A stretch of DNA of 64,000 bases from an uncultured Gammaproteobacteria bacterium (lineage in GTDB: Bacteria > Cyanobacteriota > Vampirovibrionia > LMEP-6097). Both the position numbers and the translations under genes were made by a program. The notes beneath the pieces were generated by a model, which made no database searches, had not been told where the DNA came from, and saw only the letters and a list, made by a program, of their open reading frames with translations. The stretch is from positions 1,514 through 65,513 of the forward strand of contig CAZKAT010000003.1 in assembly GCA_964551135.1 (NCBI GenBank), in the 5' to 3' direction. Of the stretch, positions 4,514-55,212 are shown in pieces; the first letter of the stretch is position 1; every line of letters begins with the position of its first letter.

Positions 4514-5093
4514 TTGGCAACCCAAAAACTCTACGGAAATAATTTAGCAGAGGTTTAATCATATTTCCTTGCTCTAATTTACTAAAACCAATAATTTCGG
4601 CTGAATTAATAGATCCTTTCGGATATTTTTTATCAGCATCACTTGCAGTTAATACTGCTGGATCTTTAATTTCGTTAACTCCATATGCCGTTGTCTCAGT
4701 ACTGGTATAATTACCAGTAATCAGAGAAATTAAAAAATTATTCCAACCTGTTACTGTCTGCTCTACTTTTGTTTTAAATTCTTGCATTACCTTAACCGTG
4801 TCATTAAAAGTAGGTCCTAACATGTGACCATCAGAGCATACCAAGATATTAGTATTATTCATTGTATCTTTTTCTTTTGCATGCAAAGCATCTAAACCTA
4901 CTCTCAATTCTTCTGGATTGTTGCATTGAATAATATTATCCTTTTCAAATATCCCTGCACCCTTACAATGTTGATTAAGACCCCAGCGACATATTGGCTC
5001 ATCATCTACAATAAAACAATAATTTTTAACAGCGCCCATATCCAAGATAATATCATCTGCGCTATAAAAAAGCAACTGTAACCATTGCCACAA
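4497..5093 (-). CDS. Hypothetical protein, 3' segment of a frame interrupted by an in-frame TAA
   Basis: 198-aa ORF in the same frame and directly contiguous with ORF 5094..5618; the track start is a TTG immediately after the TAA stop; first ATG is at codon 19. No family recognised. Confidence 0.35.
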   Translation of the reverse strand: MWQWLQLLFYSADDIILDMGAVKNYCFIVDDEPICRWGLNQHCKGAGIFEKDNIIQCNNPEELRVGLDALHAKEKDTMNNTNILVCSDGHMLGPTFNDTVKVMQEFKTKVEQTVTGWNNFLISLITGNYTSTETTAYGVNEIKDPAVLTASDADKKYPKGSINSAEIIGFSKLEQGNMIKPLLNYFRRVFGLPITTQS

Positions 5094-5618
5094 TTATTTA
5101 AATAATTCATTGCACTTAGCTAATAATTTAGGTATTGCTACATGCCAAGTGCCAACTCCTCTGAAAATCTTAAATGGGTTTAAACCATTATTTATAGGTA
5201 AAGTTTCTATACCATCAACAGAATCTGCTTTTGGGATTTTTTCTGCACTTCCAGAATGTAATACAGAGAGGTATGAGCCATTATGTTCACTACTCCATTT
5301 TTCCAAAATTGGGTTGATAGCACTTGGATATTGATTTGATATTACTAATAGTTTATTACAATCTCTTTGTTGTTCAAGAATACTAGATAATTCATTAAGA
5401 TCAGAGACCGTCTGAACATCTAAATCCTTAATACCTTGATCATTTGCACTAGATTTTAGGCTACGTTTTGTTATAGGTAGTCCAGATTTGTAATTGTCAC
5501 AATAAATAACATCAAATTTAGCCATGATATAGATAATAGCATTTGTGCTATAAAAAGAGCAAGTGTCTACAATTGCCGCCATTATTACTGCCCCGGGAAA
5601 CGCCGCTGTATCTATCAT
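5094..5618 (-). CDS. Hypothetical protein, 5' segment of a frame interrupted by an in-frame TAA
   Basis: 174-aa ORF from ATG 5618; alternative ATG at 5525 (MAKFDV...) would avoid the 56-nt antisense overlap with the mnmE start. No family recognised. Confidence 0.35.
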   Translation of the reverse strand: MIDTAAFPGAVIMAAIVDTCSFYSTNAIIYIMAKFDVIYCDNYKSGLPITKRSLKSSANDQGIKDLDVQTVSDLNELSSILEQQRDCNKLLVISNQYPSAINPILEKWSSEHNGSYLSVLHSGSAEKIPKADSVDGIETLPINNGLNPFKIFRGVGTWHVAIPKLLAKCNELFK

Positions 5619-6876
5619 TAAGATCAGTGGTGAGCAGAGCTGGGCTATAGTCTCGTCATTGCGAGGAGATGATAAATTAACTCATCGTCATATAGAAATC
5701 TCATGGATACAAGATGGCGAGAATAAAATAGATCAAGTACTAATTCTTCCTTTCAAAGCACCATATAGTTATACAGGCGAAGATCTAATAGAAATCCATT
5801 CTCATGGTGGCATGTGGATTACCGAGAGAATTTTAAAATTAATTTTAGAAGCAGGAGCTAAGCTAGCTAAGCCTGGGGAGTTCACTGAGAGAGCGTTTCT
5901 AAATCACAAGCTAGATCTATCACAAGCAGAAGCGATCTTAGATATAATTCAAGCGCGCAGCGGTAAGGCTGGCGAAAATGCAATTAAACTTTATCAAGGT
6001 TATTTAGGCAATGCGATTAAAGAGATGCGCCTAACATTACTAAATCTCTTAGGAGAACTTACTGCTTGCATAGACTTCCCAGATGAGGTTGCTGACTACG
6101 ATATAGAGAAATATCAAAAACAAATAGCTAAACAAATACAAAAGATCGAAGAATTACTTGCAGGTGAAGAAGAGGGGCATATACTACGCGAAGGTTACAA
6201 AGTAGCAATAGTAGGTAATCCAAATACTGGTAAATCTACCTTGCTCAATACTCTACTGAAAAAAGAGCGAGCAATAGTTACAGATATACCAGGGACTACT
6301 AGAGATCTAATTGAAGAATCTTATAGTATTAAGGGTCTACCACTGATTCTTCTAGATACTGCAGGAATTCGCAATAGCTCAGACCGCGTAGAACAGATCG
6401 GCATGGAACGCAGTCAGAGAGCCATAGAAGAAGCAGATCTAGTTTTAGTTCTCAAAGAAGCGCAAGACTCAAGTCCTAATACTCAAGGCTCATTATTAGA
6501 TGTAAGTTTCAAATCTAAAAATCATTTAGTGATAGGAACCAAGTTAGATTTATATTCAAATGACAATCATAATGGCTTTGATATTTGTATTTCTTCTAAG
6601 ACTGGAACTAATATAGAAGAGCTTAAGGAATTAATATACTCACGTATCATACATGGCAGTAGCCAAAATCAAGTAAAGATTAATCACAGGCAAGCTGATC
6701 TGTTGCGTAAAGCTCAAGCTGCACTAGAGCACTCTATGAGCTCAACTCACTTAGCAATAGACTTCTGGACTATAGACCTGCGCGCTGCTATCGCTGCACT
6801 CGGTGAGATTACTGGTGAGTCGTTGACAGAAGAATTACTCGACAATATCTTCTCGAGGTTTTGTATTGGGAAATAA
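5563..6876 (+). CDS. mnmE: tRNA modification GTPase MnmE (TrmE)
   Basis: 437 aa; N-terminal TIAAIITAPGNAAVSIIKISG, G-domain P-loop GNPNTGKSTLLN and DTAGIR, C-terminal CIGK tetrapeptide typical of MnmE; GTG start. Confidence 0.9.
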   Translation: MSTIAAIITAPGNAAVSIIKISGEQSWAIVSSLRGDDKLTHRHIEISWIQDGENKIDQVLILPFKAPYSYTGEDLIEIHSHGGMWITERILKLILEAGAKLAKPGEFTERAFLNHKLDLSQAEAILDIIQARSGKAGENAIKLYQGYLGNAIKEMRLTLLNLLGELTACIDFPDEVADYDIEKYQKQIAKQIQKIEELLAGEEEGHILREGYKVAIVGNPNTGKSTLLNTLLKKERAIVTDIPGTTRDLIEESYSIKGLPLILLDTAGIRNSSDRVEQIGMERSQRAIEEADLVLVLKEAQDSSPNTQGSLLDVSFKSKNHLVIGTKLDLYSNDNHNGFDICISSKTGTNIEELKELIYSRIIHGSSQNQVKINHRQADLLRKAQAALEHSMSSTHLAIDFWTIDLRAAIAALGEITGESLTEELLDNIFSRFCIGK

Positions 6877-7449
6877 TAAAGCAACTTCTCTCATAAATTT
6901 ATCTACAAATGTAGCTATTGTTGGTATTCCTTGATTTAATCCCAATACAGAAGTATTTCTCTTCCTTGCATGAAAAGCAGAAGCTCTGTCTCTTATAACT
7001 TGATCCAGAGGATCAGTAGGATTAACTTTTGGAAATAACAGTTGATTTCGTATCGCCCAATCTCCAACAGTAAAATTTGGACTAATTTTCACAATAGCAA
7101 ATCTGTCAGTAGCTTTATATAAAGTTTCAAGAAGTTTATGATAAGTCTGAGACCAATCAGCACGTCTTCCTCCTCCAGTATTTTCTACTGCTTCCTCATC
7201 AACAAAAACTAAAACTGGTGTATTTTTATCTTCTGACATATTTTGCCAAAAATTCCTATTCTCATCGAAGTAAGAAGTTTGAGTACTAGAACCTCTAGAA
7301 TAAACTACTTGATCTTGTCCTAAATTACGAATAGCATTATCAAACCAACCTGCTAATGCGGAATCAGAGAAAACAGCTATTCTCGGTGTCGCTGCTGTTG
7401 GCTTGAATTCTTTTGTTGATTCTGTTGTAATAGGTGCTGTTATAGTCAT
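6835..7449 (-). CDS. Hypothetical protein (possible SGNH/GDSL-like hydrolase fold)
   Basis: 204 aa; IAVFSDSALAG weakly resembles SGNH block I; other blocks not convincing. Convergent with mnmE, overlapping its 3' end by 42 nt. Confidence 0.3.
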   Translation of the reverse strand: MTITAPITTESTKEFKPTAATPRIAVFSDSALAGWFDNAIRNLGQDQVVYSRGSSTQTSYFDENRNFWQNMSEDKNTPVLVFVDEEAVENTGGGRRADWSQTYHKLLETLYKATDRFAIVKISPNFTVGDWAIRNQLLFPKVNPTDPLDQVIRDRASAFHARKRNTSVLGLNQGIPTIATFVDKFMREVALLFPNTKPREDIVE

Positions 7450-7485
7450 AATAAGATATTATATAATATTTCTTATCTAAATAAA

Positions 7486-7977
7486 ATGTCTATATGTAAT
7501 AATAACTGGAAAATGAACGATAGTAAACCAGAATTCTCAATTAAAAATATCGGTGATGCCAAACTTGCAATCATAGTCGCTAGCTGGAATAAACAATTCA
7601 ACATGGAGATGTACGAATCTGGACGCGAAGTTCTTGAGAAAGCAGGAATAAAAAAAATTGATCTTTACGAAGCACCAGGTGCTTTTGAAATACCATTAAT
7701 CGCACAAAAACTTGCTGAGAGTGGTAAATATACTGGCATTATTTGTTACGGCACAGTAGTTCGCGGTGATACTAGACATTTTAAGATAGTGGCTGATGAA
7801 AGTGCACGAGGAGTAATGGATGTAATGCTAAAAACTGGCATACCTGTACTTAACGGTATACTTGCCTGCGAAAACGCTGGACAAGCGGAATTCAGAGCTT
7901 CACGCAAGAAAGAAGACAAGGGTAAGGAAGTTGCGCTTTCGGCATTAAGTTTACTTAGTACTTTAGCCTCATTATAA
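7486..7977 (+). CDS. ribH: 6,7-dimethyl-8-ribityllumazine synthase
   Basis: 163 aa; AKLAIIVASWN and APGAFEIPL motifs typical of lumazine synthase; size matches. Confidence 0.8.
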   Translation: MSICNNNWKMNDSKPEFSIKNIGDAKLAIIVASWNKQFNMEMYESGREVLEKAGIKKIDLYEAPGAFEIPLIAQKLAESGKYTGIICYGTVVRGDTRHFKIVADESARGVMDVMLKTGIPVLNGILACENAGQAEFRASRKKEDKGKEVALSALSLLSTLASL

Positions 7978-13611: not shown

Positions 13612-13813
13612 TTCACTGTATATAGACTTAGCTTTAAAAACAAGTTCAGAATCCATCGAAATCTCACCCGGCATAGTTGTTGACTATGATAAAGAAGGGG
13701 ATATCGTAGGTATCGATATAGATCAAGCTAGTACAAAAGTTGACATGTCTATTCTTGAAGCCGACTCACTACCATTTGGAAATTTATCAATTAAAAAAGA
13801 TACTGATGCTTAA
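13583..13813 (+). CDS. DUF2283-like small protein (putative antitoxin)
   Basis: 76 aa; MKFRYYQETDSLYIDL...GIVVDYDKEGDIVGIDID matches the DUF2283 consensus (MKIxYDxExDxLYI ... DxDxxGxIVGIEI). Confidence 0.55.
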   Translation: MKFRYYQETDSLYIDLALKTSSESIEISPGIVVDYDKEGDIVGIDIDQASTKVDMSILEADSLPFGNLSIKKDTDA

Positions 13814-14993
13814 GACTTCTAACTCAATTCTCAACAAAGCCCTAGAAGGCAAGTGCATTAGCGAAGCTGAGGCTGTAGAACTTTTCTATAAAGCTTCACC
13901 ACTAGATCTAGCTTATACCGCTAACGTATTGCGTGAGCGCAAACACGCTAACACTGAACCAACTACTTATGTAGTACAGCGCAATATTAATTACTCAAAT
14001 GTCTGCACTGCTAATTGCACTTTCTGTGCCTTTTATACACCACCATCTGATCCTAACCCTAAAAATCCCGCTTATGTTTTAGATTACGAAACACAAATGA
14101 AACCCAAGATAGAAGAATTAATCGCTATCAACGGCACAGAGATCTTACTACAAGGCGGTCACAATCCAGCTCTTGGCGTAGAATACTATACAGATTTATT
14201 CCAAAGAATTAAGCAAGATTTTCCTGGTATTACACTTCACGCTCTAAGTCCAGCAGAGATAATTCATATCACTGAGAAGAGAATTACTCCTGCAGAAGAT
14301 TATGGTGATGGTACTAATCGCAAGAGTATTAAAGCTCCTAATATGCAAGAGGTGAAAGAAACTTTACTCGCGCTTAAAGCAGCTGGCATGGATTCACTAC
14401 CAGGAGCAGGTGCTGAAGTATTAGTAGAATCTGTACGTAAGATTATTGCTCCGCTGAAGATTACTACTGAAACTTGGCTCAATGTTATGGAAACCGCTCA
14501 CAGTATAGGATTCCGTTCATCTGCAACTATGATGTACGGGCATGTGGAAACTTACGAAGATAGAGTAGAGCATTTCAGAACCTTGCGTGAATTACAAGAT
14601 CGTACTCACGGGTTCACGGCTTTCGTTACTTGGAACTTTCAACGCGGCGACACTCCGCTCGGTAAAATCATGGACTCAATGGAGAAACAAGGTAAATTGC
14701 CTGCTTATAACTCAAACTCTGGCGGCGAAGATTATTTACGTACTACTGCTATCGCTAGAATCTACTTAGATAATTTCGAGAATTTTCAAGCAAGCTGGGT
14801 AACTCAGGGGCATCAATTAGGACAAGTATCTCTTGCGTTTGGATGTAATGATTTAGGCGGTAATATGATGGAAGAGAACGTAGTCTCGGCTGCTAACACC
14901 ACTCATAAAGCCAGTGTTAATGAAATGCGCTACTATATTGAGGCTGCTGGCAAGCAAGCTCATCAGCGAGATACGCAGTATAATTTAGTTTGA
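13806..14993 (+). CDS. Radical SAM enzyme of the MqnC/MqnE/CofH family (probable futalosine-pathway menaquinone biosynthesis)
   Basis: CX3CX2C radical SAM motif (CTANCTFC); ILLQGGHNP, MMYGHVET...HGFTAFVTWNFQ and GCNDLGGNMMEENVVSAA blocks typical of this family. Start placed at ATG 13806 (MLKTSN...), which overlaps the upstream stop by 8 nt; the track start 13740 would overlap the upstream gene by 74 nt. Confidence 0.65.
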   Translation: MLKTSNSILNKALEGKCISEAEAVELFYKASPLDLAYTANVLRERKHANTEPTTYVVQRNINYSNVCTANCTFCAFYTPPSDPNPKNPAYVLDYETQMKPKIEELIAINGTEILLQGGHNPALGVEYYTDLFQRIKQDFPGITLHALSPAEIIHITEKRITPAEDYGDGTNRKSIKAPNMQEVKETLLALKAAGMDSLPGAGAEVLVESVRKIIAPLKITTETWLNVMETAHSIGFRSSATMMYGHVETYEDRVEHFRTLRELQDRTHGFTAFVTWNFQRGDTPLGKIMDSMEKQGKLPAYNSNSGGEDYLRTTAIARIYLDNFENFQASWVTQGHQLGQVSLAFGCNDLGGNMMEENVVSAANTTHKASVNEMRYYIEAAGKQAHQRDTQYNLV

Positions 14994-16090: not shown

Positions 16091-16888
16091 TTAAAACAGC
16101 AATAAAAATATTGCCAAAACCACCCGGTAGACAATAAAGCCCATTAAATTGTGGTTTTTGAGGAATTTGATCATGAAATCTATAGCTAAATAGCCAACAA
16201 TAAAACTTGTTATAAATCCCAAAAATAAGGGAATAATACTAGAATCAGAGTTTAATCCACCTTCAGCTAAATCTTTTAGTGCTAATAATCCTGCGCCGGC
16301 CACTGCAGGCAAACCTACCAAAAACGAAAATCTTGCAGCAGAGTCTCTACTTAGACCAGTAAATAAACCTGCAGATATAGTTGATCCAGAACGTGATACT
16401 CCTGGGAAAAGTGCAAGTGTTTGCATTAGACCCACGAAAAATATTTCTTTAATTGATAGATCTTCTATAGGCTTGTGTTCTTGACGCTTCTTAGTAAAAG
16501 CATCAGCACAGTACATCAAGACTGAACCGAGTAATAGAGTTATAACTATAGACATAGTAGACCTAATCATCTCAGATCCCCAGAACGCCTTGAAGCCAAA
16601 ACCAATAGCTATCACTGGTATAGTCGCTATCAAAATACCGATAGCAAGTTTACGTTCTGTAGGATTGTTAGAGATGAAACTCTTAAACATCACCAATACT
16701 TCCTTACGAAAATAAATTAGCGTTGCTGCAAGAGTTCCTAAATGCAAGAAAGCATCTACATCTAAGCCTGGGTCACAAAAGCCACAAAGCTTAGGAGCTA
16801 TTACTAAGTGAGCCGAGCTACTAATAGGTAAGAATTCTGTGAGTCCTTGGATAACAGCAAGTATAATTATTTCAATATATTTTTCCAT
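16091..16888 (-). CDS. uppP: Undecaprenyl-diphosphate phosphatase
   Basis: 265 aa polytopic membrane protein; N-terminal GLTEFLPISSSAHL motif characteristic of UppP/BacA. Confidence 0.85.
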   Translation of the reverse strand: MEKYIEIIILAVIQGLTEFLPISSSAHLVIAPKLCGFCDPGLDVDAFLHLGTLAATLIYFRKEVLVMFKSFISNNPTERKLAIGILIATIPVIAIGFGFKAFWGSEMIRSTMSIVITLLLGSVLMYCADAFTKKRQEHKPIEDLSIKEIFFVGLMQTLALFPGVSRSGSTISAGLFTGLSRDSAARFSFLVGLPAVAGAGLLALKDLAEGGLNSDSSIIPLFLGFITSFIVGYLAIDFMIKFLKNHNLMGFIVYRVVLAIFLLLF

Positions 16889-16901
16889 AATAAAATTATA
16901 T

Positions 16902-19900
16902 CTAGATACAAGCTCCAGCGGCTACAAGTCCAACCCAACTAGAACCATCAAAGAAGCATAATTCATTCGTATCAGAATCTACGTAAATATCTCCCAGAGA
17001 AGGCGAACTTGGTGCCGCTGACCTTGGTTCCAAACGCATAAGATCAGAAATATGAACAGTTCGCTGTGGAATATTAGTACCAACTCCTAATCGTTTATTC
17101 ACATTGTCCCAATATAAACTAGATTGGTCTTCAATAAGCACACCAGAAGTATTTGAGAATAATATTGAACCATTAGTAAAGTTACCGTCTAAATTAGCAC
17201 CATTAATAGTTGTGGCCTTAACAGTTGTGATATTACCCGTAGTAAAATTAGCTGTAACACCATTAATTTGTGCAGTTGCATTGATAGTACCAGTAACATC
17301 AAGAGCAGTTGCTGGGCTGGATTGATTTATACCAATCTTAACAGCGGAAGTATCTACATAGAGTTGATCGGTGTTAACAGCAAAATCTCCAGTAGTTGAA
17401 AGAGATACGTTTAAGTTAGTACCTGCTCCTGGGGTGATAGTCATGGCACCAGTACCAGTGAAAATAGTTGAAGCACCATCAAAACTTATATTAGGATCTG
17501 CAATAGAAACTGTCGTACTATTAATATCCAAAGGTGCATCCGCAGCCACAGTAAGAGTTTTACTAGCTTTAGTAAAACTCAATGCACCATTGCCTCCTAG
17601 AGCACTACTATCATTGAATTGAAAATTAGTATTAGCTCCTGCTGCCACAAACGATACACTACCATTAGTTAAATTATATTTAGTGCCACCATCATCCATA
17701 AAGTAAAGCTTAGAGTTAGCGGTATTAACATAGATCTGACCAAAGTTACTGATAGCGGTTCCAGGTGCAGCAACCTCATATAGAGCGGTAATACCATTGA
17801 CAGTAAGCAGAGCATCAGCATTAGTAGTACCCACTCCTAATCTATTAGCTGTTCTATTCCAGTAGAGTTTAGAATTATTCTGACTAATTATCCCAATATT
17901 ATTAGAGAAAAGTATGGAACCGTTAGTGAAATTACCATCTAAGTTAGCACCGTTTATAGTTGTAGAGTTAACCGTAGTTATATTGCCAGTAGTAGCTCCC
18001 ACGGTTGTAGCATTAACAGTAGTTATATTACCAGTAGTAGCTCCCACGGTTGTAGCATTAACAGTAGTTATATTAGCAGTAGTACCTGTATAGGTTCCTA
18101 CATAAGCGTTTGCAAAGCGAATTGCATTGGAACCTAAATCATATAACGCGTTACCATTAGGACCAATATTACCTACTACTTGTAATTTAAAACTACTAGG
18201 CAAGCTAGTTCCTATTCCTACATTCTGCGCAAAATATCCATTCTTAGTTACATGAAGATCACCTACGACATCCAAGTTATAAGCAGGAGTATTAGTTCCA
18301 ATTCCAAGTCTATTAAAAGCATCATCCCAAAAAAAGGATACTTCATCTGCATTAAAGGAACCTGGCGTAAGTCCTCTGAATTGAATTGCACCAGGGATAG
18401 TTCCCTGTGATGTATCAGATCCATTATTGACCACATTTACATTTGCCCAGTAAGCAAAGCCACTAGCATCAGTAGTGAGTACATAACCTACAGTTGCACC
18501 ATCCCTCATGGTAATTCCATTTGTAGTTAATAAACCTCTTACTTCTAATTTACTAGCTGGAGTATTAGTACCAATTCCCATTCTATTATTAGCACTATTC
18601 CAATAAACTTGAGAATTATTTTGGCTTATAGCTCCAGCAACATTTGAAAATAGAAGTGAGCCATTGGTAAAATTCAAATCAACTGTGTTGATATAAGCAT
18701 TTGCAAAGCGAGTTGTGTTTGTACCTAAATCATATAAAGCACTAGCATCAGGTCCAATACTACCTGCTACTTGCAATTTAAAACTACTTGGCGTAGCAGT
18801 CCCGATTCCAACATTAGTAGCGCTGGTATCTACATAAAGATGATTAGTGTTAACAGCAAAATCTCCAGTAGTAGCAAGAGACACATTTAAATTAGTACCA
18901 GCACCTGGAGTAATAGTCATAGCACCGGTCCCAGTGAAAGTAGTTGAAGCTCCATCAAAAGCAATATTAGTATCTGCAATAGAAACAGTTGTACTATTTA
19001 TGTCTAAAGGCGCATCAGCAGGGACAGTTAGAGTTTTACTTGCTTTAGTAAATGTTAGAGCTCCATTACCACCAAGAGCATTATTATCATTAAATTGAAA
19101 ATAAGTATTAGCTCCAGCTACCGTAGAAGCACTACCATTAGTTAGGCTGTAAACCACACCACTATCATCTTTAAAATACAATCTAGAGTTCGTAGAATTT
19201 ACATAAACTTGTCCAAAGTTACTCATTGTACTTGGCACTGTAGTTTTAAATAAAGCCAAAACCCCATTAATAGTCAGCATGGCATCAGCATTACTGGTTC
19301 CAACTCCTAATCTAGAATTAGTTCTATCCCAATAAAGCTTAGAATTGTTTTGAGAAATTACACCAGCAGCATTTGAAAACAGAAGCGAACCATTACTAAA
19401 GTCACCATCAAAGCTAGTCGTAGTACCGTTAAAAATACCAGAGACAATGACGTTAGTAAAGCTTGCATTAACACCATTCACAGAGCCAGATGAAAGAACC
19501 TTAGTTAAATTAGCAGTAGTACCATTAATATTAGTAGTAGATAAAACTTTATTGCTAGTGATAGTGCCGCTTAAATTTGCAGCAGTACCATTGAAATTAG
19601 TAGCTAAAACTGTACCTGCAATATAAGCATCATCATCTACCTCAAGATCATCGGCGGCAATAATATCACCAACACCATTTATAAAAGTAGCAATTCCTCC
19701 TCCTACATCTAATTGAGCTGCAGGACTACTGTCACCAATGGCTACCATATTAGTTGATCCTTGCGCAAAAATCAGATGAGTTTGACTGCTTCCTTCTACT
19801 CTAAAATTCACTGAATTAGCAGCTTCATTGAAAATTGCTCCACCATTAGCATTCAATATGATATCTGCTCCAGTTATAGTAGTACCTCCTATAACTGCAC

Positions 19901-21197
19901 TTTGATTTCCAGAACTAGCCCTAGGATATAAATATGTACCTTGATTAACCCATTCACTAGCAGTCGTAAGTAATTGAAGGTTTTGCCAACTAGCTAAACC
20001 GCTAGCATTAGAAACTAATATAAATCCTGCTCTTTGACTTCCATCTTTGATTTGCAATGATCCATTAAAAATTGCATTACCTTGTACTAATCCATTATGA
20101 GTAAAACTAAAAGGACCATTCACCAGGGTTCGTCCATTTAAAAAAGCATTCTGCAGCTTTCCATTACTAGTAAATGATAAAAGAGCATTTATATTACCAC
20201 CATTAGCAATAGAACCAAGAGGACCTTGCGCACCTTGGGGACCTGGGATACCTTGTGCTCCTGAACCACCTGGAATTCCTGCTGGTCCCCTCGGACCAAT
20301 AGGTCCCTGGGGTCCCTGAGAGCCAAGTATTGACCGCGTTCCATTGCTAGTAAAATAAAAATTTACACCATCGTATTCTATAGCTCCATCTACGATATTA
20401 TTAGTTAAAAGTCCTGCCTCAAATTTAATACCAGGACTTTCTCCATCACCAGCTTTAGCAGTAAAATAAGCAGGCTCAGTAATATCGATAACATTACCAT
20501 TACCTTGACCTCCACCAGATCCTTTGGAACTAGTTGATTTGATATATTGAATTCCTTTTATTGAAATTGGTATGGTAACTTTATAAAATCCCGATCTAGA
20601 TTTTATGACACTAGTAGTAATTTGTTTTTGTGGTTTAGCTTCAAAAACCACGTTATCAAAAATATATTGCAACTGACAATCATTAAAATTATTCTGATTA
20701 CAATCTGCATTAGTAAAGGCTTTCAGGGTTTCATTATTTTGGCCTGATAAATTTATAGCAGAGATAGTAGTTTGATAAGTATTTATTAGATTCTTATTAC
20801 TGTTATAAACTTCAAACTGAAGCGTTTTAGAATTCTTAGTAAAATATCCAATATTTATATTTAGTGTTCTGATTTTAGTTTCAGGAGCAAAGGTTATATT
20901 TTGAGTATTGAGAAATGTTCTAATATTGTTATTGATTTCAAAACAATCTATTTTAAAACTACTATTATTGTTGTTATTACTTATATAAAGATCTGTTGAA
21001 TCTATTTTAATATTAATACTATGCGTCTCTTTAAGATTAAGTTCTTGATCTTGCTTAAGTAAATAAAATTTTAGATTTGGATCAGAACCACTTATGAAAT
21101 CTATTGCAATATATGGATCAGATACGGCATTAACATAGCAAAAATTAAGAAGAAGCAAAAATATAAAAATTCTTCTGGTTAATTTATATTTATTCAT
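16902..21197 (-). CDS. Large secreted collagen-like repeat protein (possible surface fibre/adhesin)
   Basis: 1431 aa; N-terminal signal-peptide-like segment; collagen G-X-Y run (GSQGPQGPIGPRGPAGIPGGSGAQGIPGPQGAQGP); two roughly 240-aa near-identical internal modules; recurrent motif NGS(I/L)LFSN...LYW(D/N)...RLG(V/I)GT; very T/N/G/S-rich. Confidence 0.7.
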   Translation of the reverse strand: MNKYKLTRRIFIFLLLLNFCYVNAVSDPYIAIDFISGSDPNLKFYLLKQDQELNLKETHSINIKIDSTDLYISNNNNNSSFKIDCFEINNNIRTFLNTQNITFAPETKIRTLNINIGYFTKNSKTLQFEVYNSNKNLINTYQTTISAINLSGQNNETLKAFTNADCNQNNFNDCQLQYIFDNVVFEAKPQKQITTSVIKSRSGFYKVTIPISIKGIQYIKSTSSKGSGGGQGNGNVIDITEPAYFTAKAGDGESPGIKFEAGLLTNNIVDGAIEYDGVNFYFTSNGTRSILGSQGPQGPIGPRGPAGIPGGSGAQGIPGPQGAQGPLGSIANGGNINALLSFTSNGKLQNAFLNGRTLVNGPFSFTHNGLVQGNAIFNGSLQIKDGSQRAGFILVSNASGLASWQNLQLLTTASEWVNQGTYLYPRASSGNQSAVIGGTTITGADIILNANGGAIFNEAANSVNFRVEGSSQTHLIFAQGSTNMVAIGDSSPAAQLDVGGGIATFINGVGDIIAADDLEVDDDAYIAGTVLATNFNGTAANLSGTITSNKVLSTTNINGTTANLTKVLSSGSVNGVNASFTNVIVSGIFNGTTTSFDGDFSNGSLLFSNAAGVISQNNSKLYWDRTNSRLGVGTSNADAMLTINGVLALFKTTVPSTMSNFGQVYVNSTNSRLYFKDDSGVVYSLTNGSASTVAGANTYFQFNDNNALGGNGALTFTKASKTLTVPADAPLDINSTTVSIADTNIAFDGASTTFTGTGAMTITPGAGTNLNVSLATTGDFAVNTNHLYVDTSATNVGIGTATPSSFKLQVAGSIGPDASALYDLGTNTTRFANAYINTVDLNFTNGSLLFSNVAGAISQNNSQVYWNSANNRMGIGTNTPASKLEVRGLLTTNGITMRDGATVGYVLTTDASGFAYWANVNVVNNGSDTSQGTIPGAIQFRGLTPGSFNADEVSFFWDDAFNRLGIGTNTPAYNLDVVGDLHVTKNGYFAQNVGIGTSLPSSFKLQVVGNIGPNGNALYDLGSNAIRFANAYVGTYTGTTANITTVNATTVGATTGNITTVNATTVGATTGNITTVNSTTINGANLDGNFTNGSILFSNNIGIISQNNSKLYWNRTANRLGVGTTNADALLTVNGITALYEVAAPGTAISNFGQIYVNTANSKLYFMDDGGTKYNLTNGSVSFVAAGANTNFQFNDSSALGGNGALSFTKASKTLTVAADAPLDINSTTVSIADPNISFDGASTIFTGTGAMTITPGAGTNLNVSLSTTGDFAVNTDQLYVDTSAVKIGINQSSPATALDVTGTINATAQINGVTANFTTGNITTVKATTINGANLDGNFTNGSILFSNTSGVLIEDQSSLYWDNVNKRLGVGTNIPQRTVHISDLMRLEPRSAAPSSPSLGDIYVDSDTNELCFFDGSSWVGLVAAGACI
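17080..17900. repeat. Internal direct repeat, copy 2, within the collagen-like gene (approximate bounds)
   Basis: Near-identical antisense ORFs at 17371..17622 and 18847..19098 (about 90% identical over 83 aa) show two copies of a roughly 0.8-kb segment spaced 1476 bp apart. Confidence 0.7.
17986..18075. repeat. Perfect 45-bp tandem repeat (2 full units plus partial flanking copies) inside the collagen-like gene
   Basis: Units 17986-18030 and 18031-18075 are identical (ccagtagtagctcccacggttgtagcattaacagtagttatatta); encodes repeated TTVNATTVGATTGNI; unit length is a multiple of 3. Confidence 0.8.
18560..19380. repeat. Internal direct repeat, copy 1, within the collagen-like gene (approximate bounds)
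   Basis: Same as copy 2; protein-level modules NGSLLFSNAAGVISQNNSKLYWDRTNSRLGVGT... and NGSILFSNNIGIISQNNSKLYWNRTANRLGVGT... Confidence 0.7.
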
Positions 21198-24209: not shown

Positions 24210-25925
24210 ATGACAAGAATTCCTCGAACAACTCCCGACAGATCATTTCGCCCTATAATTCCAGGACATTATCATAGTCGCAGTTATATTACTTCCACTG
24301 AGGATACTTTTCTAAATTATGATGATTACACTCCACGAATAAGACCTGTCGTTATTAGTCATGATTTTAAACCTCAACGAACAATTGAAATAAACAATGC
24401 TCAATCTAGACAAAAAATTAAGCATCAAATTTACAAAGCCTTAGTAAAGGAAAAGGTTAAAGACGATGCATTAATAGCAATATCTGAAGTTCACGGTGGC
24501 ACAAATAGCTCTCTTATTTACTCAGGTATCAAAGATCCTACAAAACCTGCCGAAACTTTACACTCTCTTCAATTTAAATTAAAGGGTGATCATCCTGAGC
24601 ACGATATTTCTATCGCCAGGGACATTATTGGACAAGTTGGACGCCAAGCTAAGAACTGTGGAGATCTATTTGGTGAACTCTGTGTTGCAAGCTGGCATAA
24701 AGGCGGTAAAGCAGATATTGCTAATGATGATGCTTCAGACTGGAAACACAAGCCAGGCTATTGGGCACATGTCAATCGTGCAATTGTTGATAGAGCTAAA
24801 GATTACGGTAAAAACGAACCATATAGTTTTGGAGAAGCTACTCAAAGTCGATTCGATGACCATTCATTAAACTTACATTCTAGTGTCACTAACGGTCCAG
24901 ATGGAACCCATCACTTATCAGCTAAAAATAAGCAAGGTATTGCTAGAAGGTATCACTCCAATATACAAAACGATGGTAGCTATGGACTCCAGTCATTTAG
25001 AGACTTATATGGAATACCAAAAGAAGAAACCATTGCAACTTTAATTTATGGTTCTGGTTATAACACCAATATCGGGCAGGGAAATATGATTGTTAATACC
25101 GAGAATGGACATATCACCAGGAAAACTTGTCCTGCATTACAGCAAGACTGGGATCAATATGGTCAATTTTTAGAACTGCAGAGAGTTGGTTCTAGCCAAG
25201 AGTTTGGTAATCTTGAAAGACATGAATTAATAGTCGCTGGAGGTAATACTGATAATCAATATGCTGGTCCTAAATTAGCAGCAAACAATATTATCAACTC
25301 AATTACTGAAGACTTAGCTCGTGATGGACAAGCTTCTGCAGTTACAAGTCAAATGTTGAAACTATTAGGGATTAGCTTTGAAGATGCTAAAGTAAGTGAT
25401 TTAATTGATATTAAACGAGAAAGAAATATTGACAATCCAGATATAGATAGAAGTATTCTTACTAATTACAATGACGGAACAGTGTCCCAGAAAGGCTTAC
25501 TGGCACTGAAAATATATGAAAACTTAGCTCATAGAGCTGGAACTATACTTGCTAAATTCTTCGATGACAGTCAAGTTAAGAAGGAACAAGAATTAACTAT
25601 TGATTTTAGAAAAGCAACTAAGATCGGTATCATTGGAAGCCAAGGCAAAGGAATGTATGATAGGAAAATGCCACCATCAATTCTAGGAAATTTCGTTAAT
25701 GCTCTCAATCAAGTTAGACCTAACAATCCATTATATGCAAACGATGTAATAATTCATGCACCGATACAAGACGGTGCCTATGCTGCAGCTCTAGCAAGAT
25801 TAGGAATTCAAATGCGATCATCTGACATTCAAGTTTCTAGCAACATAGATTCTGAAACTGAAGTTGCTAACACTATTAGAGGAGGAGGGTTTAGAGGTGT
25901 GAAGCATCTTGCACAAACTTCTTAA
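24210..25925 (+). CDS. Hypothetical protein (571 aa), no recognisable family
   Basis: Long ORF with a promoter-like element upstream; no motif recognised by eye. Confidence 0.45.
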   Translation: MTRIPRTTPDRSFRPIIPGHYHSRSYITSTEDTFLNYDDYTPRIRPVVISHDFKPQRTIEINNAQSRQKIKHQIYKALVKEKVKDDALIAISEVHGGTNSSLIYSGIKDPTKPAETLHSLQFKLKGDHPEHDISIARDIIGQVGRQAKNCGDLFGELCVASWHKGGKADIANDDASDWKHKPGYWAHVNRAIVDRAKDYGKNEPYSFGEATQSRFDDHSLNLHSSVTNGPDGTHHLSAKNKQGIARRYHSNIQNDGSYGLQSFRDLYGIPKEETIATLIYGSGYNTNIGQGNMIVNTENGHITRKTCPALQQDWDQYGQFLELQRVGSSQEFGNLERHELIVAGGNTDNQYAGPKLAANNIINSITEDLARDGQASAVTSQMLKLLGISFEDAKVSDLIDIKRERNIDNPDIDRSILTNYNDGTVSQKGLLALKIYENLAHRAGTILAKFFDDSQVKKEQELTIDFRKATKIGIIGSQGKGMYDRKMPPSILGNFVNALNQVRPNNPLYANDVIIHAPIQDGAYAAALARLGIQMRSSDIQVSSNIDSETEVANTIRGGGFRGVKHLAQTS

Positions 25926-41823: not shown

Positions 41824-42228
41824 GGGGGCGTATAGCTTTGACAGGGGTCAGAGATGGTAAAACGCGAGTCCAGGTAGCCTAGGTCCTGGTAAAGCCAAGG
41901 CAAAACATAAGTGTAAATGAATTTGAAGTAACTGTAGCGCAAGCTACACCTGCTGAGCGTTTCGCTCAAGCAGCTTAGTCCCGACATACTGCGGACACTT
42001 CCTCGCTGCTTAACGGCTAACCGGTTAGGATTGTGAGGCACTAAACAGGTCAGTGCATGAATCATACTTTGATAAGTTTAGTATGAGGAGTAAAGATCAT
42101 AAGCTTAGAACCCGTTGAGTGTCTATGCTCTTAAGCACGGCAACAGCTTAGATTTATAGACTACACTCGTAGTGGTTTATCGTTGAAAACTTTTGGACGC
42201 GAGGGGCAGTTCCTCGCCGCCTCCACCA
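41824..42228 (+). ncRNA. ssrA: tmRNA (transfer-messenger RNA), standard one-piece form
   Basis: 5' GGGGGCG pairs with 3' CGCCUCC (7-bp acceptor stem with G3:U70 alanine identity pair) followed by encoded ACCA; 5' GGGGGCGUAUAGCUUUGACAGGGG resembles the tmRNA tRNA-like domain; T-arm GCGAGG/CCUCGC; internal open frame ending ...AQATPAERFAQAA then UAG, consistent with an Ala-Ala-terminated tag. The overlapping 81-aa minus-strand ORF is considered spurious. Confidence 0.75.
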
Positions 42229-42288
42229 TTTTTAATTAAAATATCCAAAATCTAGACATAATCATCAATTTTAGATAATATTACAATT

Positions 42289-43602
42289 ATGAGTACCAAT
42301 ATTATAAATGGAACTTTTATTCAAAGCCCAATGGTAGAAAGTCCTACCAAACCAAATTCTTATTTAGGTAAACGAATAAGAAAGATAACGCCACCTCTTA
42401 AATTACATCATAGACAATTACATTTATCTACAAAAGACTTGTTAAAACTTAGTCTTGAAAAACTCTTTAAAACAAATCCCAATCCAGATGTTGACCAAAT
42501 TTCTGCAGCCATAGACCCAATATTAGTTCCAAGCGAATATGAGCAAGCTTCTAATTCACAACTAATTTGCAAACTATGTGTGCATCGTATTAATGATGCT
42601 TGGGATATTTTTCAAAAATTAAAATCTGATTTGAAACTTGAAAATCCTCAAATAGACTTGGAGTTTGCAAAATCTATTCATGAATCTTATATAACATTAG
42701 TTGAGTCAGAACAAGATCCATTGTCAAACGAAGAGCTAGCGGAGCTAACTCTTAAGGTTATTAAAAAAACTAAATTCATGATAGATCCACGTATTTATAA
42801 AGCTATATTTGGAAACAATGGTAGCTTTAATGTCAAATCTTTTTTGATTCCAGTAACAATTCATGATCAAGCAATTAGACCTGATTCTTCTGAACACAAT
42901 GATTTAAAAAGATTTTTTAAAAATTATGATATAGATATCTCTAATATAGAAATTCCTCCACTGATTGAAACTGATACAGCGTCTGAAGTTGCAGGTCATT
43001 GTGCCACAAATTATATAATTTCTTACCCTCTTGATTCATCTAAAAAGTTATATAGGGAAACTATTGAAACACTTAGAGACTCTTCATTAAAAACACAACT
43101 ATTGTATGAAATAAATAACTATAGTAGCAGTGTTCTATCACATGAACTAACTCATTATTTCCTTAAAGTTAAAGTGCCAAATATTAGGTCTACAGAACCA
43201 ACAGATTTAAACGCAAAAATCTATATTTCGCCTGAAAATTATATTAATTGTGTTATACCTTCAAATGAAATGGCTCGTGAAATGATTGCATATACTATGA
43301 GCTTGTTTACTGATCCAATTTTTTCTATTGCTACAATGCTCGAAAGTAAAGATTCTTGCTTAGAACTTAGCAAGCCAATAATAATAATTTGCAAGGGATT
43401 GGCTTTAGGGTCTCTAGCAAAGGATCAAGCTGAGTTTGATGCAGATTTACAACTCTTACGCAATATGACTGGGATTAACTATATGATTTATATGTTTCAT
43501 AGACTAGGTCAAGAAAAATTTGATCAGTTTGTTAAAACAGTCCAAGAAGTTTTTAAATCTATTTCAGGGCAATTGCTAGCTCAGACACAAGCTCAAAAGT
43601 AG
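42289..43602 (+). CDS. Hypothetical protein with HExxH motif (possible zinc metalloprotease)
   Basis: 437 aa; SHELTHYF HExxH motif with a downstream Glu (PSNEMAREM) that could be a third ligand; otherwise unrecognised. Confidence 0.4.
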   Translation: MSTNIINGTFIQSPMVESPTKPNSYLGKRIRKITPPLKLHHRQLHLSTKDLLKLSLEKLFKTNPNPDVDQISAAIDPILVPSEYEQASNSQLICKLCVHRINDAWDIFQKLKSDLKLENPQIDLEFAKSIHESYITLVESEQDPLSNEELAELTLKVIKKTKFMIDPRIYKAIFGNNGSFNVKSFLIPVTIHDQAIRPDSSEHNDLKRFFKNYDIDISNIEIPPLIETDTASEVAGHCATNYIISYPLDSSKKLYRETIETLRDSSLKTQLLYEINNYSSSVLSHELTHYFLKVKVPNIRSTEPTDLNAKIYISPENYINCVIPSNEMAREMIAYTMSLFTDPIFSIATMLESKDSCLELSKPIIIICKGLALGSLAKDQAEFDADLQLLRNMTGINYMIYMFHRLGQEKFDQFVKTVQEVFKSISGQLLAQTQAQK

Positions 43603-43643
43603 TAACTAAAGCAAGACTGGATTGTATCTAGCTAGGATCCTAG

Positions 43644-44843
43644 TTAATTTGATGCAGCAGCCAATTGTTTTTGTTTTTGATAATAAAGCGTTGCCATAAC
43701 TTTGGCACCATTATGGTCATTCTCTATAGCTATAGGACTATCACTTAATCTATGAAGTTGAGAACCTTTAAACTCCTCAAGGAAAGCTTTTTTATTCTCA
43801 TCATTCGATAAAACATTAGTCAGTGGACTTGCTTGAACAATAAATTGAGCTTGTTGAATTTTAGAATTAGCTTTTATTACATAAGCTAAAACTTTCGCTA
43901 CAACAATTTGAATAGCTTGAAATACTATATCGTCTGTCTGTGGATTAAAGACTTGAGCCATACCATATTTATCACCATTAGTACCTATCTCAGAAGCTTG
44001 TATCTTATGCCTATCAGTTTTCAAATATTCCTCTAATTGTTCAATCAATTTAGGAGTATTAATTACACTTCTTAATTTAGCTAAAGCCACGTCTCTAGAT
44101 CTATTTAAGAGACTAACTATATGCTTTGCAATCGCAAGCAAACCTTCTCGCTCATTAGTTGGCGAGAATAATTCACCCAATTTCACAGCAACTTTTGGTA
44201 ATAGATCTTCAAAAACACCTTGAGGCTTGAATTCTGCATCGTAAAGATTGTGTTTAATTATTCCTTTATTGAAATCATTTTTTTCTTGATTAACATCTTG
44301 ACCCTCTGTTACAGTAAATTTCCCTGAACCAAGATCTATGAAAGCAAGATTCTGAGCAACTTGTATACTTGGAATAGATAAACCTGCAAAGAGTTTAGCA
44401 ATATTTGCACCAATAACTTTAATCTCTAAACCAGCTGCTTTAACACAATCTGATAAAGTTTCTAATGTCTTGCTTAGCGAAGCTTGAAAAACATCTTCAA
44501 ATTTTAAAAGATCTTGAGAATAAGTAGCATTTGGATCCACAAAAAATAATGTAGATGGTCTTTCTAATTTATGAAATTCATAATCAAGATTGGTTAAATT
44601 AGTTAAAGATTGTTTTAATCTAGTGTTCTCTCTATTTAATATCACAGCATTATAAGAACTTGGCTGAACAGATTTTTGGGGATCTCTTGGCAACTCTGAA
44701 TAATTTTGAATAGTTAAATCACCCTTAGTTTTCTTAGCAGAAGGCGGTTCATGCAAAACACAAGCTTTAAAAGACAAGCCTGCTGGTTGCGAAGTATGGG
44801 TACCGGTAATAAAAGACGTTTGCACGACATAATAGACTAGCAT
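43644..44843 (-). CDS. Hypothetical protein (399 aa)
   Basis: ORF only; AFIDLGSGKFTV loosely resembles a phosphate-binding loop of actin-like/Ppx-GppA ATPases but the context is unconvincing. Confidence 0.4.
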   Translation of the reverse strand: MLVYYVVQTSFITGTHTSQPAGLSFKACVLHEPPSAKKTKGDLTIQNYSELPRDPQKSVQPSSYNAVILNRENTRLKQSLTNLTNLDYEFHKLERPSTLFFVDPNATYSQDLLKFEDVFQASLSKTLETLSDCVKAAGLEIKVIGANIAKLFAGLSIPSIQVAQNLAFIDLGSGKFTVTEGQDVNQEKNDFNKGIIKHNLYDAEFKPQGVFEDLLPKVAVKLGELFSPTNEREGLLAIAKHIVSLLNRSRDVALAKLRSVINTPKLIEQLEEYLKTDRHKIQASEIGTNGDKYGMAQVFNPQTDDIVFQAIQIVVAKVLAYVIKANSKIQQAQFIVQASPLTNVLSNDENKKAFLEEFKGSQLHRLSDSPIAIENDHNGAKVMATLYYQKQKQLAAASN

Positions 44844-44975
44844 GAATTACCTGTAAATAACAATCTATGCTGCATTGCCACTATTCATCTTTCTACATAA
44901 TATTCCCAGCATTTGTCTAATGTCTAGCTATGACCCAATTACTTAACCTATTAAATCAAACAACATAATTCATAT

Positions 44976-47888: not shown

Positions 47889-47907
47889 AATATGCTATTA
47901 TGTTGCC

Positions 47908-48213
47908 ATGATTAAGAATCAAATAATTTATACTGGCCTCAATAAACCTTTCTATGAAAGAACTCTACCTGTTATTGCACCTGAATCTAATTCTATAAGC
48001 ACATTGAGCAGTAGAGACTTACGTAATATTTTTATACCAGTCAATATGCCTGCCTCTCCTCTTCCAGATGCTCCTACAACTCCAACTACTCCAACTCCTG
48101 ATAAAGATGTACCAACAAGAAGCGTACCTTTACCAGCAAACCCTCAACAAGATCCCGATGGTGCTCCAAGTTCGGTACCTTGTCCTCCTAGTGAATGTCC
48201 TCATCCAAGATGA
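47908..48213 (+). CDS. Small Pro/Thr-rich hypothetical protein
   Basis: 101 aa; C-terminal PTTPTTPTPD...CPPSECPHP low-complexity; 20 nt downstream of the 970-aa ORF. Confidence 0.3.
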   Translation: MIKNQIIYTGLNKPFYERTLPVIAPESNSISTLSSRDLRNIFIPVNMPASPLPDAPTTPTTPTPDKDVPTRSVPLPANPQQDPDGAPSSVPCPPSECPHPR

Positions 48214-48271
48214 AACTCTTTGATTAAGACCATTTCAAAGCTACGTTTAGCATTTTAAATCTCTTAGCAAA

Positions 48272-49432
48272 TTAGTTAAAAATATACCAATCAATTATTT
48301 TCCACACATCTTGATTACCAAGCTCTGATGCCATCTCTAATCTAGATTGTGCCGCTGTCTTGCCAACACAGTAAATGCCTGCTTGACTAAGATTTCCTAT
48401 CATTTCGACAAGATGTTCTTGAGCTAATTTGTCTCCTGGAAATAGCTTTGGCATATAAGCATGAACCATATTTTGTAAAATAGCATTGAAAGTAAATAGA
48501 GTTGGCCAAGTGATCATTTCTGCTCTAGTTCTATCTCTGAGCTTTCCTAAGTCATCAGGATTAATTCCTTTCTTAAGTTCTCCGGCAATTACATCTCTTA
48601 AAATATATGCTGAACCAACTATCCCTCCTAAAGCTTTTCCTGAACTAGCATTCAGCTTTAAACCTAACGCAAAACTCAATCCAAAAATCAATAAATCAAT
48701 TGCTGATCTTTTCAAATTGAGTTCTTTTGTAGAAATTTTCTCAATACCCTCATTAGCTTTTTCAAGATCTTTTTTTCTTTCACAAAGATTTTTTACTAAT
48801 ATAGTTAAAGGAATATTTCTCGGGTCGTTTCTATATTCATCTGGATACTTATTTAATTCTGCTTTTACAACGTCACGAAGTTCACTAAGGATAGGATTTC
48901 TGAGATATTTAACTTCTCCAATAATAGTATAGTAACTAAGCATGCTGGCAAATCTAGATTGCATTTGCACAGAATCTGTAAATGATGCAGCAAGAAAATT
49001 AGCAGGATATCTTGCAAGCAGGGCACCTAACTGTATAATCAAACCAGCCCAGGGCCTGCAATAAGCATCAGCATTATCATAACGAAGTGCATCTTCAGAA
49101 CTATGAGGATCTTCTGCATGCTTAACAAAATTATTAGCAATTAAAACTTTCGCTTCATAAAATTCAGCTCCAATAGCAGGCAATGATGAACTAAGGGTGG
49201 GATTAACACAATGCATTACATGATTAACTAATGGAGCTTTTGTTTTTTTATTAGTCTTTTGTGCTAATGCTTTATTAGTTAGCTCTTCAGCATTAGATTG
49301 ATTTTTTTGCTCAGGTTGTTTTTTAATTTCATTTGTTGCATGACCACTAACCGTAAGCAAACCTAGGGGCAAAACTTTTAAAAAATTTCTTCTACTTATT
49401 GGGTGAACCAGCACTGGGCAAAATAATATCAC
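48272..49432 (-). CDS. Hypothetical protein with twin-arginine (Tat) signal
   Basis: 386 aa; N-terminal ISRRNFLKVLPLGLLTVSGHA matches the Tat consensus (S/T-R-R-x-F-L-K plus hydrophobic region and AxA-like site); GTG start. Confidence 0.5.
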   Translation of the reverse strand: MILFCPVLVHPISRRNFLKVLPLGLLTVSGHATNEIKKQPEQKNQSNAEELTNKALAQKTNKKTKAPLVNHVMHCVNPTLSSSLPAIGAEFYEAKVLIANNFVKHAEDPHSSEDALRYDNADAYCRPWAGLIIQLGALLARYPANFLAASFTDSVQMQSRFASMLSYYTIIGEVKYLRNPILSELRDVVKAELNKYPDEYRNDPRNIPLTILVKNLCERKKDLEKANEGIEKISTKELNLKRSAIDLLIFGLSFALGLKLNASSGKALGGIVGSAYILRDVIAGELKKGINPDDLGKLRDRTRAEMITWPTLFTFNAILQNMVHAYMPKLFPGDKLAQEHLVEMIGNLSQAGIYCVGKTAAQSRLEMASELGNQDVWKIIDWYIFN

Positions 49433-49483
49433 AAGAACACGCGCAACCTGTTATTTTAATCATCATGCTATTATTTTTAATCT

Positions 49484-50788: not shown

Positions 50789-50848
50789 TTATTAAGTGGA
50801 CAATTTCCTTTAATTTCAACTCAAATCATTTGAGGTATAATATACTTA

Positions 50849-51913: not shown

Positions 51914-51939
51914 ATACCTGATAAAATTTATAATGCTCG

Positions 51940-53257: not shown

Positions 53258-53289
53258 TTTCTAATAATGACAAATAACTCTTTCTCAAT

Positions 53290-53478
53290 ATGTCCCTCAG
53301 GTATCATTCAAATACAAGTGCTAGATTAAACTCTTTTATTCAAACAAGAAATAAAACACTAAAACTAATCGAAAACTTAAATGAAGAAGATGCTTACATT
53401 CAGTCCATGCCAGATGTAAGTCACATTAAGAGTGGAATAGCTCTAATTCTTATAGTTTTATTTTTCTGTTCAATTTAA
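53290..53478 (+). pseudogene. Remnant of an egtB-like N-terminus (truncated paralogous fragment)
   Basis: SFIQTRNKTLKLIENLNEEDAYIQSMPDVS aligns with LFIQVRNKTLDLVRDLNEEDTCLQSMTDAS at the N-terminus of the egtB gene at 53867, then diverges and terminates. Confidence 0.5.
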
Positions 53479-53641
53479 ATTCTACCGAGTCACCTTCATC
53501 TTGTTTAACTTCTGGCTGCACTACTCTGACGGTTTCTTTAATAACATCAGGTTGTTTTACTTTGTTTTTATCTATGATTAAGTAAATACCCACCATAACC
53601 AATACTGTTAATAGGGCGATAATAATTCCATTGTTGTTCAT
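53450..53641 (-). CDS. Candidate small membrane protein (63 aa)
   Basis: N-terminal TM helix IIIALLTVLVMVGIYLII, charged tail; AAAGGAA RBS about 7 nt upstream. Confidence 0.3.
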   Translation of the reverse strand: MNNNGIIIALLTVLVMVGIYLIIDKNKVKQPDVIKETVRVVQPEVKQDEGDSVEFKLNRKIKL

Positions 53642-55201: not shown

Positions 55202-55212
55202 AGGAGAAAGAT

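Follow-up and report, generated by a model that had tools for sequence, protein, structure and literature searches.

A probable mosaic-adhesive-trimer-like surface fiber with a short collagen segment encoded in the genome of an uncultured bacterium

The gene analyzed here is an open reading frame (ORF) located at 16902..21197 on the minus strand of a 64,000-nucleotide stretch of DNA from an uncultured bacterium (contig CAZKAT010000003.1, GenBank assembly GCA_964551135.1; the whole stretch is called the window below, and positions refer to it). In agreement with a first-pass annotation of this DNA, it encodes a protein of 1431 aa, and its frame is intact over 4.3 kb; all parts of the protein are accordingly given with minus-strand coordinates. 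We suggest that this fiber protein is probably a surface adhesin of the phage-tail-fiber type, similar to the mosaic adhesive trimers (MATs) but without an S74 domain, and closest in its organization to the MATs, the prey-gripping fibers of the predator Bdellovibrio. The observations that carry this reading are the domain order of the protein, the homology of its capping loops, a conserved N-terminal end combined with exchangeable tips, the presence of multiple copies per genome and a genomic context of housekeeping genes. The MAT superfamily of Bdellovibrio bacteriovorus consists of surface-displayed trimeric fibers with intertwined beta-helix domains and capping loops of the consensus V-G-G/N-pi-x-x-P-x-x-x-L; the C-terminus of these fibers is an S74 chaperone in some members and one of various non-S74 tips in others (Caulton et al. 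2024, PMC10769870).

The recurrent motif NGS(I/L)LFSN…RLG(V/I)GT, which had already been noticed in the first-pass annotation, is present in four copies, with NGS[IL]LFSN at aa 607, 850, 1097 and 1347. A profile built from 26 sequences of one of the repeated shaft modules (module A, described below) was searched against the sequences of the PDB, and two matches to Bdellovibrio fibers passed the default threshold of the search that we took as significance: Bd2133 (8OND, E = 3.4e-7) and Bd3182 (8OJN, E = 1.4e-6). The matches to Bd2439 (8OL4, E = 0.017), Bd1334 (8ON4/8OML, E about 0.05) and MyRF (7DC3, E = 1.3) were marginal. All matches of this profile to fiber structures pass through the capping-loop stretch '…NVGIGTTxPxxKLxV…', and since the MAT structures are reached through RLGIGT..P…L, this repeat motif is identified by homology as the capping loop of trimeric beta-helix fibers. 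A regular expression for the loop found seven copies in the protein, compared with 0.23 expected from shuffled sequences, to which two variants that are longer by one residue (aa 796 and 992) can be added, making nine in all; the definition of the motif and the assignment of PDB codes to proteins were taken from PMC10769870. Designed beta-propeller ('Bagel') proteins ranked higher in this search; they aligned to another region of the profile (positions 26-87), in most cases without an individually significant stretch.

A second link to the same structures comes from the other end of the protein and is independent of the module A profile: a profile of the N-terminal region of the family matches only Bdellovibrio MAT fibers in the PDB. 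The beta-helix-end unit that stands directly before the collagen segment (aa 241-291, 20325..20477, YFTAKAGDGESPGIKFEAGLLTNNIVDGAIEYDGVNFYFTSNGTRSI) aligns to residues 191-250 of the 8OND chain (E = 1.6e-4), that is, to Bd2133 residues about 852-911, which comprise the last capping loop plus 'IKFPDGSVQTTA'. Its core, GA[IL]E[YF][DN]G..[LFI]YFT, is kept in 10 of the 10 family members that were aligned.

The N-terminal domain defines a family of its own. Only about 10 proteins can be aligned over the N-terminal 290 residues, and the most similar one (45% identity) comes from a metagenome-assembled genome (MAG) named Candidatus Caenarcaniphilales. An exhaustive HMMER search of 1.84 billion cluster representatives recovered 123 proteins below E = 1e-30, and, when the HMMER matches are combined with earlier homology matches, the domain is carried by at least 107 cluster representatives (50% clustering), always at the N-terminus of the protein; there is no Pfam or NCBIfam model for this family. 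A hydrophobic leader precedes the domain in 79 of the 86 members with complete N-termini, and six or more consecutive G-X-Y triplets occur in 49 of the 107 members, mostly just past the domain. Within species-representative genomes 17 loci with the N-domain were found, and there are two or three copies per MAG. The records of these MAGs are titled Caenarcanales, Melainabacteria, 'uncultured bacterium' or, in automated third-party annotation (TPA) assemblies, 'uncultured Gammaproteobacteria'.

At the opposite end, the C-termini of the 107 members fall into at least five recurrent tip classes. The tip class of the fiber protein is found in 11 of them, and Pfam Peptidase_S74 scores above its cut-off at the C-terminus of just three. 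Identity in the tip does not follow identity in the N-domain: P0236 and P0238 are 62% identical to the fiber protein in the tip compared with 26-28% in the N-domain, and for P0226 the values are 61% and 25%. Tip and shaft identity are decoupled from N-domain identity, with tips swapped between distant members, and all family members seem to carry mosaic shaft modules together with exchangeable tips.

The organization of the protein is most readily compared with that of the Bdellovibrio MATs, especially the non-S74 fiber Bd2133. In both, a signal peptide directly precedes a conserved beta-rich N-terminal domain, a likeness established for presence and position; a long shaft punctuated by capping loops follows, with profile matches here to four solved MAT structures (two significant, two marginal); and variable, exchangeable tips with or without S74 are encoded in several copies per genome in a chromosomal, non-phage context. 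In contrast to the MATs, about half of the family described here has a collagen segment between the N-domain and the shaft, whereas collagen is absent from the main text of the MAT study, of which a supplementary table has one Saprospiraceae MAT with a 'collagen-like' tip (PMC10769870). The host lineage also differs, the MAGs being titled Caenarcanales or Melainabacteria. Furthermore, surface display and ligand binding have been shown for MATs, whereas for the fiber protein both are predictions. To our knowledge, MAT fibers have been experimentally characterized only in Bdellovibrio.

The capping-loop motif is also held in common with S74 fibers and spikes such as the phage K1F endosialidase, the T5 L-shaped tail fiber and eukaryotic MyRF. 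Unlike these, the fiber protein has no Pfam match to Peptidase_S74 in its tip, and a scan of the 107 family members found no SD.R.K motif in it. Another element must therefore register the trimer, and the collagen segment is the most obvious candidate for this function.

The shaft connects the protein to viruses. A search with aa 598-1086 retrieved 105 proteins, whose sources include Patescibacteria, Chlorobi and viral metagenomes. Many of these proteins carry Peptidase_S74 or PF26209 (Phage_phiTE_241_C), and a few are named 'tail fiber domain-containing protein'. Among the PHROG families, phrog_5906 (unknown function) is matched in five stretches (E = 9e-23) and the tail-fiber family phrog_366 at E = 1.6e-6, and weak tail-fiber PHROG matches of the protein fall over its collagen part. 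We scanned IMG/VR with a single conserved shaft stretch, GAMTITPGAGTNLNVSLATTGDFAVNTNHLYVDTSATNVGIGT, and found it in four viral contigs (L023-L026), where some 55 residues align with an aa identity of 69-78%. On the first of these (L023, IMG/VR UViG_3300042448_000896), an ORF of 977 aa at 4747-7677 combines long collagen repeats with the conserved shaft module (…LTISPTSGQNINLTLSGTGDFAVNTNHLYVDTSTGNVGVGTATP…) and matches many tail-fiber PHROGs. The fiber protein therefore resembles collagen-bearing viral fibers (L023:4747-7677; phrog_366, phrog_6320, phrog_1806) in its G-X-Y repeats and in a GxxTIxPxxGxNLNxxLSxTGDFAVNTNxLYVDTSxGNVGxGT module, whereas the viral ORF lacks both a signal peptide and the family N-domain, lies among phage-like genes and has a much longer collagen. 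The earlier impression that the repeats resemble those of phage tail fibers or surface fibers thus holds on two counts, through the homology of the capping loops and through a shaft module that recurs in viral tail-fiber ORFs, and the claim that the architecture is that of an adhesin or host-interaction fiber is supported as far as sequence analysis reaches.

The large internal repeats were analyzed for their divergence. Two modules, A1 (aa 596-840, 18678..19412, with capping loops at aa 630 and 796 and the highly conserved shaft stretch used in the IMG/VR scan) and A2 (aa 1086-1335, 17193..17942, a diverged duplicate with capping loops at aa 1120 and 1288), flank module B (aa 841-1085, 17943..18677, capping loops at aa 873, 964 and 992), which is 38% identical to A1 in a self-BLAST. 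The first-pass annotation had described the two large modules as near-identical at the nucleotide level and the gene as prone to recombinational length variation through identical repeats. Both the modules and their spacing (1470-1476 nt) are indeed present, but their nucleotide sequences are far from identical. A1 (aa 596-814) and A2 (aa 1086-1305) share 73% of their amino acids (BLASTP E = 1e-105), a match that surfaced after the protein was split into segments, the whole-protein self-BLASTP having given the identity match alone. At the DNA level identity is 75% across 619 nt, reaches 82% for the best-matching 300 nt and amounts to 71% for 239 aligned codons; the same codon is used at just 55% of the identical amino acids, and the longest exact run in common is 26 nt. 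This level of divergence makes A1 and A2 poor substrates for homologous recombination and means that they cannot have arisen through duplication or collapse during assembly. The sole perfect repeat in the gene lies in a 45-nt tandem array at the end of module B (17959..18093, 2.8-3 copies), which encodes the 15-aa units TGNITTVNATTVGAT.

In the closest relative of the protein, P0162 (1101 aa), the region collinear with aa 595-1430 is 71% identical and both A copies are present; the duplication is therefore older than the split of the two proteins. Identity to P0162 is 54% in the N-domain, 80% in A1, 72% in module B and 80% in the tip. P0162 is without the 259-aa segment aa 336-594, has about one 15-aa tandem unit where the fiber protein has three, and carries an internal deletion in its A2. 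On this comparison, length change in the family is best explained by the gain and loss of modules and by the short tandem array, not by recombination between A1 and A2, and the claim of recombinational length variation is not upheld. The large repeats are best regarded as old and diverged, being neither an artifact nor a recombination hotspot, and misassembly is plausible only for the number of copies in the 45-nt array. Two antisense ORFs of 83 aa (17371-17622 and 18847-19098, plus strand) are near-copies of each other and by-products of the A1/A2 repeat rather than independent genes.

Several other explanations of the protein can be weighed against these results. That the repeat structure is an assembly artifact, or the ORF a decaying pseudogene, we find scarcely credible: the sequence was assembled from a metagenome, and genes with many repeats are easily misassembled, but A1 and A2, which differ at about a quarter of their nucleotides and share so few codons, are too divergent to be of assembler origin, the frame is intact, the identical protein is found on four contigs across NCBI and ENA, and P0162 shows the same order over aa 595-1430 with both A copies. 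It is also very unlikely that the protein is the tail fiber of a phage, prophage or tailocin residing in the chromosome and thus a component of a virion or particle. The two PHROG matches, the shaft module in common with viral ORFs that match tail-fiber PHROGs, and the Peptidase_S74 domains of many module-sharing proteins would all agree with such an origin. However, the protein has a Sec-type leader, as do most members of its family, while the viral homologue has none. Its neighbors in the window are housekeeping genes (trmD, uppP, thrC, a radical-SAM enzyme, mutS, topA and gatB), and Pfam annotation of the 16-kb locus showed no phage genes, nor did the ten large window ORFs that were scanned. 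The context of the homologue loci is likewise housekeeping and chromosomal, and the GC content of the gene (0.357) matches that of the window (0.361). Furthermore, the same patterns that recovered the 17 genomic loci detected no N-domain in 2.9 million viral contigs, and tblastn of the modules against 50,697 GenBank phage records gave no match.

A cellular origin would also be compatible with a function other than adhesion. The protein may belong to a non-specific structural surface coat (a nap, a sheath or an S-layer-associated filament) that gives spacing, protection or hydrophobicity, as with the collagen-like BclA nap of Bacillus exosporia, or it may have the reverse polarity with the N-domain as an exposed head, as in the streptococcal Scl proteins. 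Like Streptococcus Scl1/Scl2 and Bacillus BclA, it would be a secreted protein in which a globular N-terminal region is followed by a G-X-Y stalk. Such a role would be consistent with the position of the collagen segment after the globular N-domain, with a sequence rich in Asn, Thr, Gly and Ser that contains 49 NxS/T sites, with a tip in which Pfam recognizes no lectin or enzyme, and with the large fiber-like genes that stand adjacent at homologue loci and share shaft modules without the N-domain. Against this, one conserved end combined with exchangeable tips that are swapped between distant members is what would be expected of recognition fibers. The protein lacks the LPXTG anchor and C1q-like head of Scl1/Scl2 and BclA, has no SLH domain, and scores far under the cut-offs of the NCBIfam Scl models NF038330 and NF038329 (21.5 and 16.9 bits compared with 400 and 325); the collagen accounts for just 39 of its 1431 residues, the bulk being a tail-fiber-type shaft. 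We consider the coat or its reversed form unlikely.

Our preferred reading, that of a MAT-like adhesin fiber without S74, has several points to contend with. It is mainly through stretches of ~35-60 residues around the capping loop that the protein matches MAT structures, and single-sequence PDB searches gave no fiber match. An AlphaFold2 model of the module A monomer was of low confidence (predicted local distance difference test, pLDDT, 65.6) and mostly extended chain, and Foldseek with this model returned no significant fold match. An obligate trimer would be expected to behave in this way when modelled as a single chain, and the trimeric fold of the shaft is a prediction. The N-domain spans about 215 aa, compared with about 130 aa in Bdellovibrio, and its likeness to the domain there is established for presence and position. 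Thirteen triplets are short for a stable free-standing collagen helix. Expression, export and surface location are putative, and the reading would require a route across an outer membrane. Finally, the putative placement in the Melainabacteria follows only from the record titles of the nearest homologues, and other MAGs with family members are titled 'uncultured Gammaproteobacteria'.

Taking the MAT-like reading forward, we propose that the predicted Sec signal would export the chain and that the conserved N-terminal domain, an immunoglobulin (Ig)-like sandwich followed by a subdomain with a disulfide pair, would hold the fiber at the cell envelope. The 13-triplet collagen segment would set three chains in register, a G-X-Y run implying a trimer by established collagen chemistry. 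Beyond it, the remaining ~1100 residues of the three chains would intertwine into a trimeric beta-helix shaft, with a capping loop of the form (V/L)G(I/V)(G/N)xxxPxxxL closing each of its roughly nine units. The shaft would end in a small, disulfide-bonded Cys-pair tip, LGDIYVDSDTNELCFFDGSSWVGLVAAGACI, which may contact a ligand on another cell or particle; adhesion, its ligand and the N-terminal anchoring are, like export and the trimeric state past the collagen segment, what we infer from this arrangement.

If this is correct, MAT-type fibers, which are parts of tail fibers re-used by cells as surface adhesins, would reach a sister lineage of the cyanobacteria that is deep-branching and uncultured. 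A large protein family (at least 107 representatives) would thereby be defined as well, with a conserved N-terminal domain as a candidate envelope anchor, and the placement of collagen beside beta-helix units would suggest an idea of how trimerization could be achieved without an S74 chaperone. In organisms known from metagenomes only, how many tips a genome encodes and how varied they are could then serve as a genomic proxy for a lifestyle of cell-to-cell attachment. The MAT concept and collagen-bearing tail fibers are already known; what is new is that an uncultured lineage has a MAT-like family whose N-terminal domain is unmodelled and which has collagen as a putative register element. Searching the literature for Melainabacteria and collagen returned irrelevant gut-microbiome papers only, and of the six papers in the searched library with the phrase 'mosaic adhesive trimer' none was on Melainabacteria by title or abstract. 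A broader hypothesis, drawn by analogy with the Bdellovibrio MATs, is that the N-domain family may be a lineage-specific repertoire of target-recognition fibers in non-photosynthetic relatives of cyanobacteria (Caenarcaniphilales and other Melainabacteria), which would imply an attached, epibiotic or predatory lifestyle. In these fibers a short collagen helix would replace the S74 chaperone for chain register, and shaft and tip modules would be traded with phages of the same habitat. Taken as a whole, this scenario is a tentative one that we think rather unlikely.

The remaining parts of the protein can be described from the N-terminus. The first 24 residues (21126..21197) look like a Sec-type leader, with MNKYKLTRR, a hydrophobic core of 13 residues (IFIFLLLLNFCYV) and a putative cleavage site, VNA|VS; they form the only hydrophobic segment of the protein, and a lipobox is absent. 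The first subdomain of the N-terminal domain (aa 25-148, 20754..21125) is predicted to be an Ig-like beta-sandwich (model pLDDT 73-91), while the second (aa 149-240, 20478..20753), modelled with low confidence (pLDDT 31-71), contains C166, C174 and a FEAKPQKQ motif, the columns of which are invariant in family alignments. After the beta-helix-end unit comes the collagen-like triple-helix segment (aa 292-330, 20208..20324), which has 13 uninterrupted G-X-Y triplets with Pro at X in six and Gln at Y in five of them. Of the signal peptide and the collagen-type run of about 12 triplets that the first-pass annotation had listed, the former is thus matched by a signal-peptide-like N-terminus, and the latter is present and one triplet longer. 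The Pfam Collagen model (PF01391) scores 21.8 bits, below its gathering cut-off of 27.2, because the 39-residue run is shorter than the 60-residue model, and the PDB matches of the segment are collagen peptides only.

Between the collagen segment and module A1, aa 331-595 (19413..20207) consist of NG-rich strands and one capping-loop module (VAIGDSSPAAQL at aa 485) that recurs in P0004, P0005, P0006 and other proteins. The C-terminal tip (aa 1336-1431, 16905..17192) contains one further NGSILFSN…RLGVGT unit, with a capping loop at aa 1370, and continues into the Cys-pair motif named above, with Cys1414 and Cys1430. A Pfam search of the protein yielded sub-threshold collagen only, with no lectin, enzyme, C1q-like or SLH domain, and NCBIfam and single-sequence PDB searches likewise gave sub-threshold collagen matches alone. 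No LPXTG sorting signal was found in the protein, and no YadA-type anchor barrel, head or stalk was matched in Pfam at E up to 1; the C-terminus is instead a 30-residue Cys-pair hairpin motif.

In the genome, the fiber gene is situated directly upstream of a BacA/UppP gene (16091..16888, minus strand), which starts 13 nt 3' of it on the same strand, as had been reported. No terminator-like site lies between the two genes, the sole such site being past uppP. This adjacency was not seen at any homologue locus examined and therefore carries no functional weight. BLASTN and BLASTP comparison of the window with the fetched homologue loci found no flanking genes in common, and thus no conserved synteny, and a promoter scan gave fewer sites than expected from shuffled sequences and was uninformative.

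At two of the homologue loci (L020 13532-23513 and L021 13809-23809), three further large genes, encoding about 700 to 1900 aa each, stand after the N-domain fiber gene; the majority share shaft modules without the N-domain, and one has a weak YadA_head match. At a third (L022), an ORF of 11,241 aa precedes the fiber gene. The unit found before the collagen segment of the fiber protein, composed of a capping loop and …GA(L/I)E(Y/F)DG..LYFT, also occurs in as many as 27 copies in giant proteins (2000-5000 aa) without the N-domain (P0164, P0194 and others).

Elsewhere in the window, the radical-SAM gene adjoining thrC (13740-14993, plus strand) encodes a CofH_C-type enzyme and could be a futalosine-pathway or FO-synthase-type gene. 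A full-length transfer-messenger RNA (tmRNA) at 41824-42228 (plus strand) matches Rfam RF00023 (93.6 bits, E = 3.5e-35), despite which ARAGORN called no tRNA or tmRNA gene in the whole window. Two plus-strand ORFs, 970 aa at 44976-47888 and 571 aa at 24210-25925, have no Pfam match at 1e-5. The 970-aa ORF was considered as a paralogue of the fiber gene and rejected, its sequence being helical and charged, unlike that of the fiber. It is situated in a stretch of lower GC content, from about 42000 to 56000, where values of 0.31-0.34 compare with 0.36-0.43 elsewhere and which may be a compositionally distinct island.

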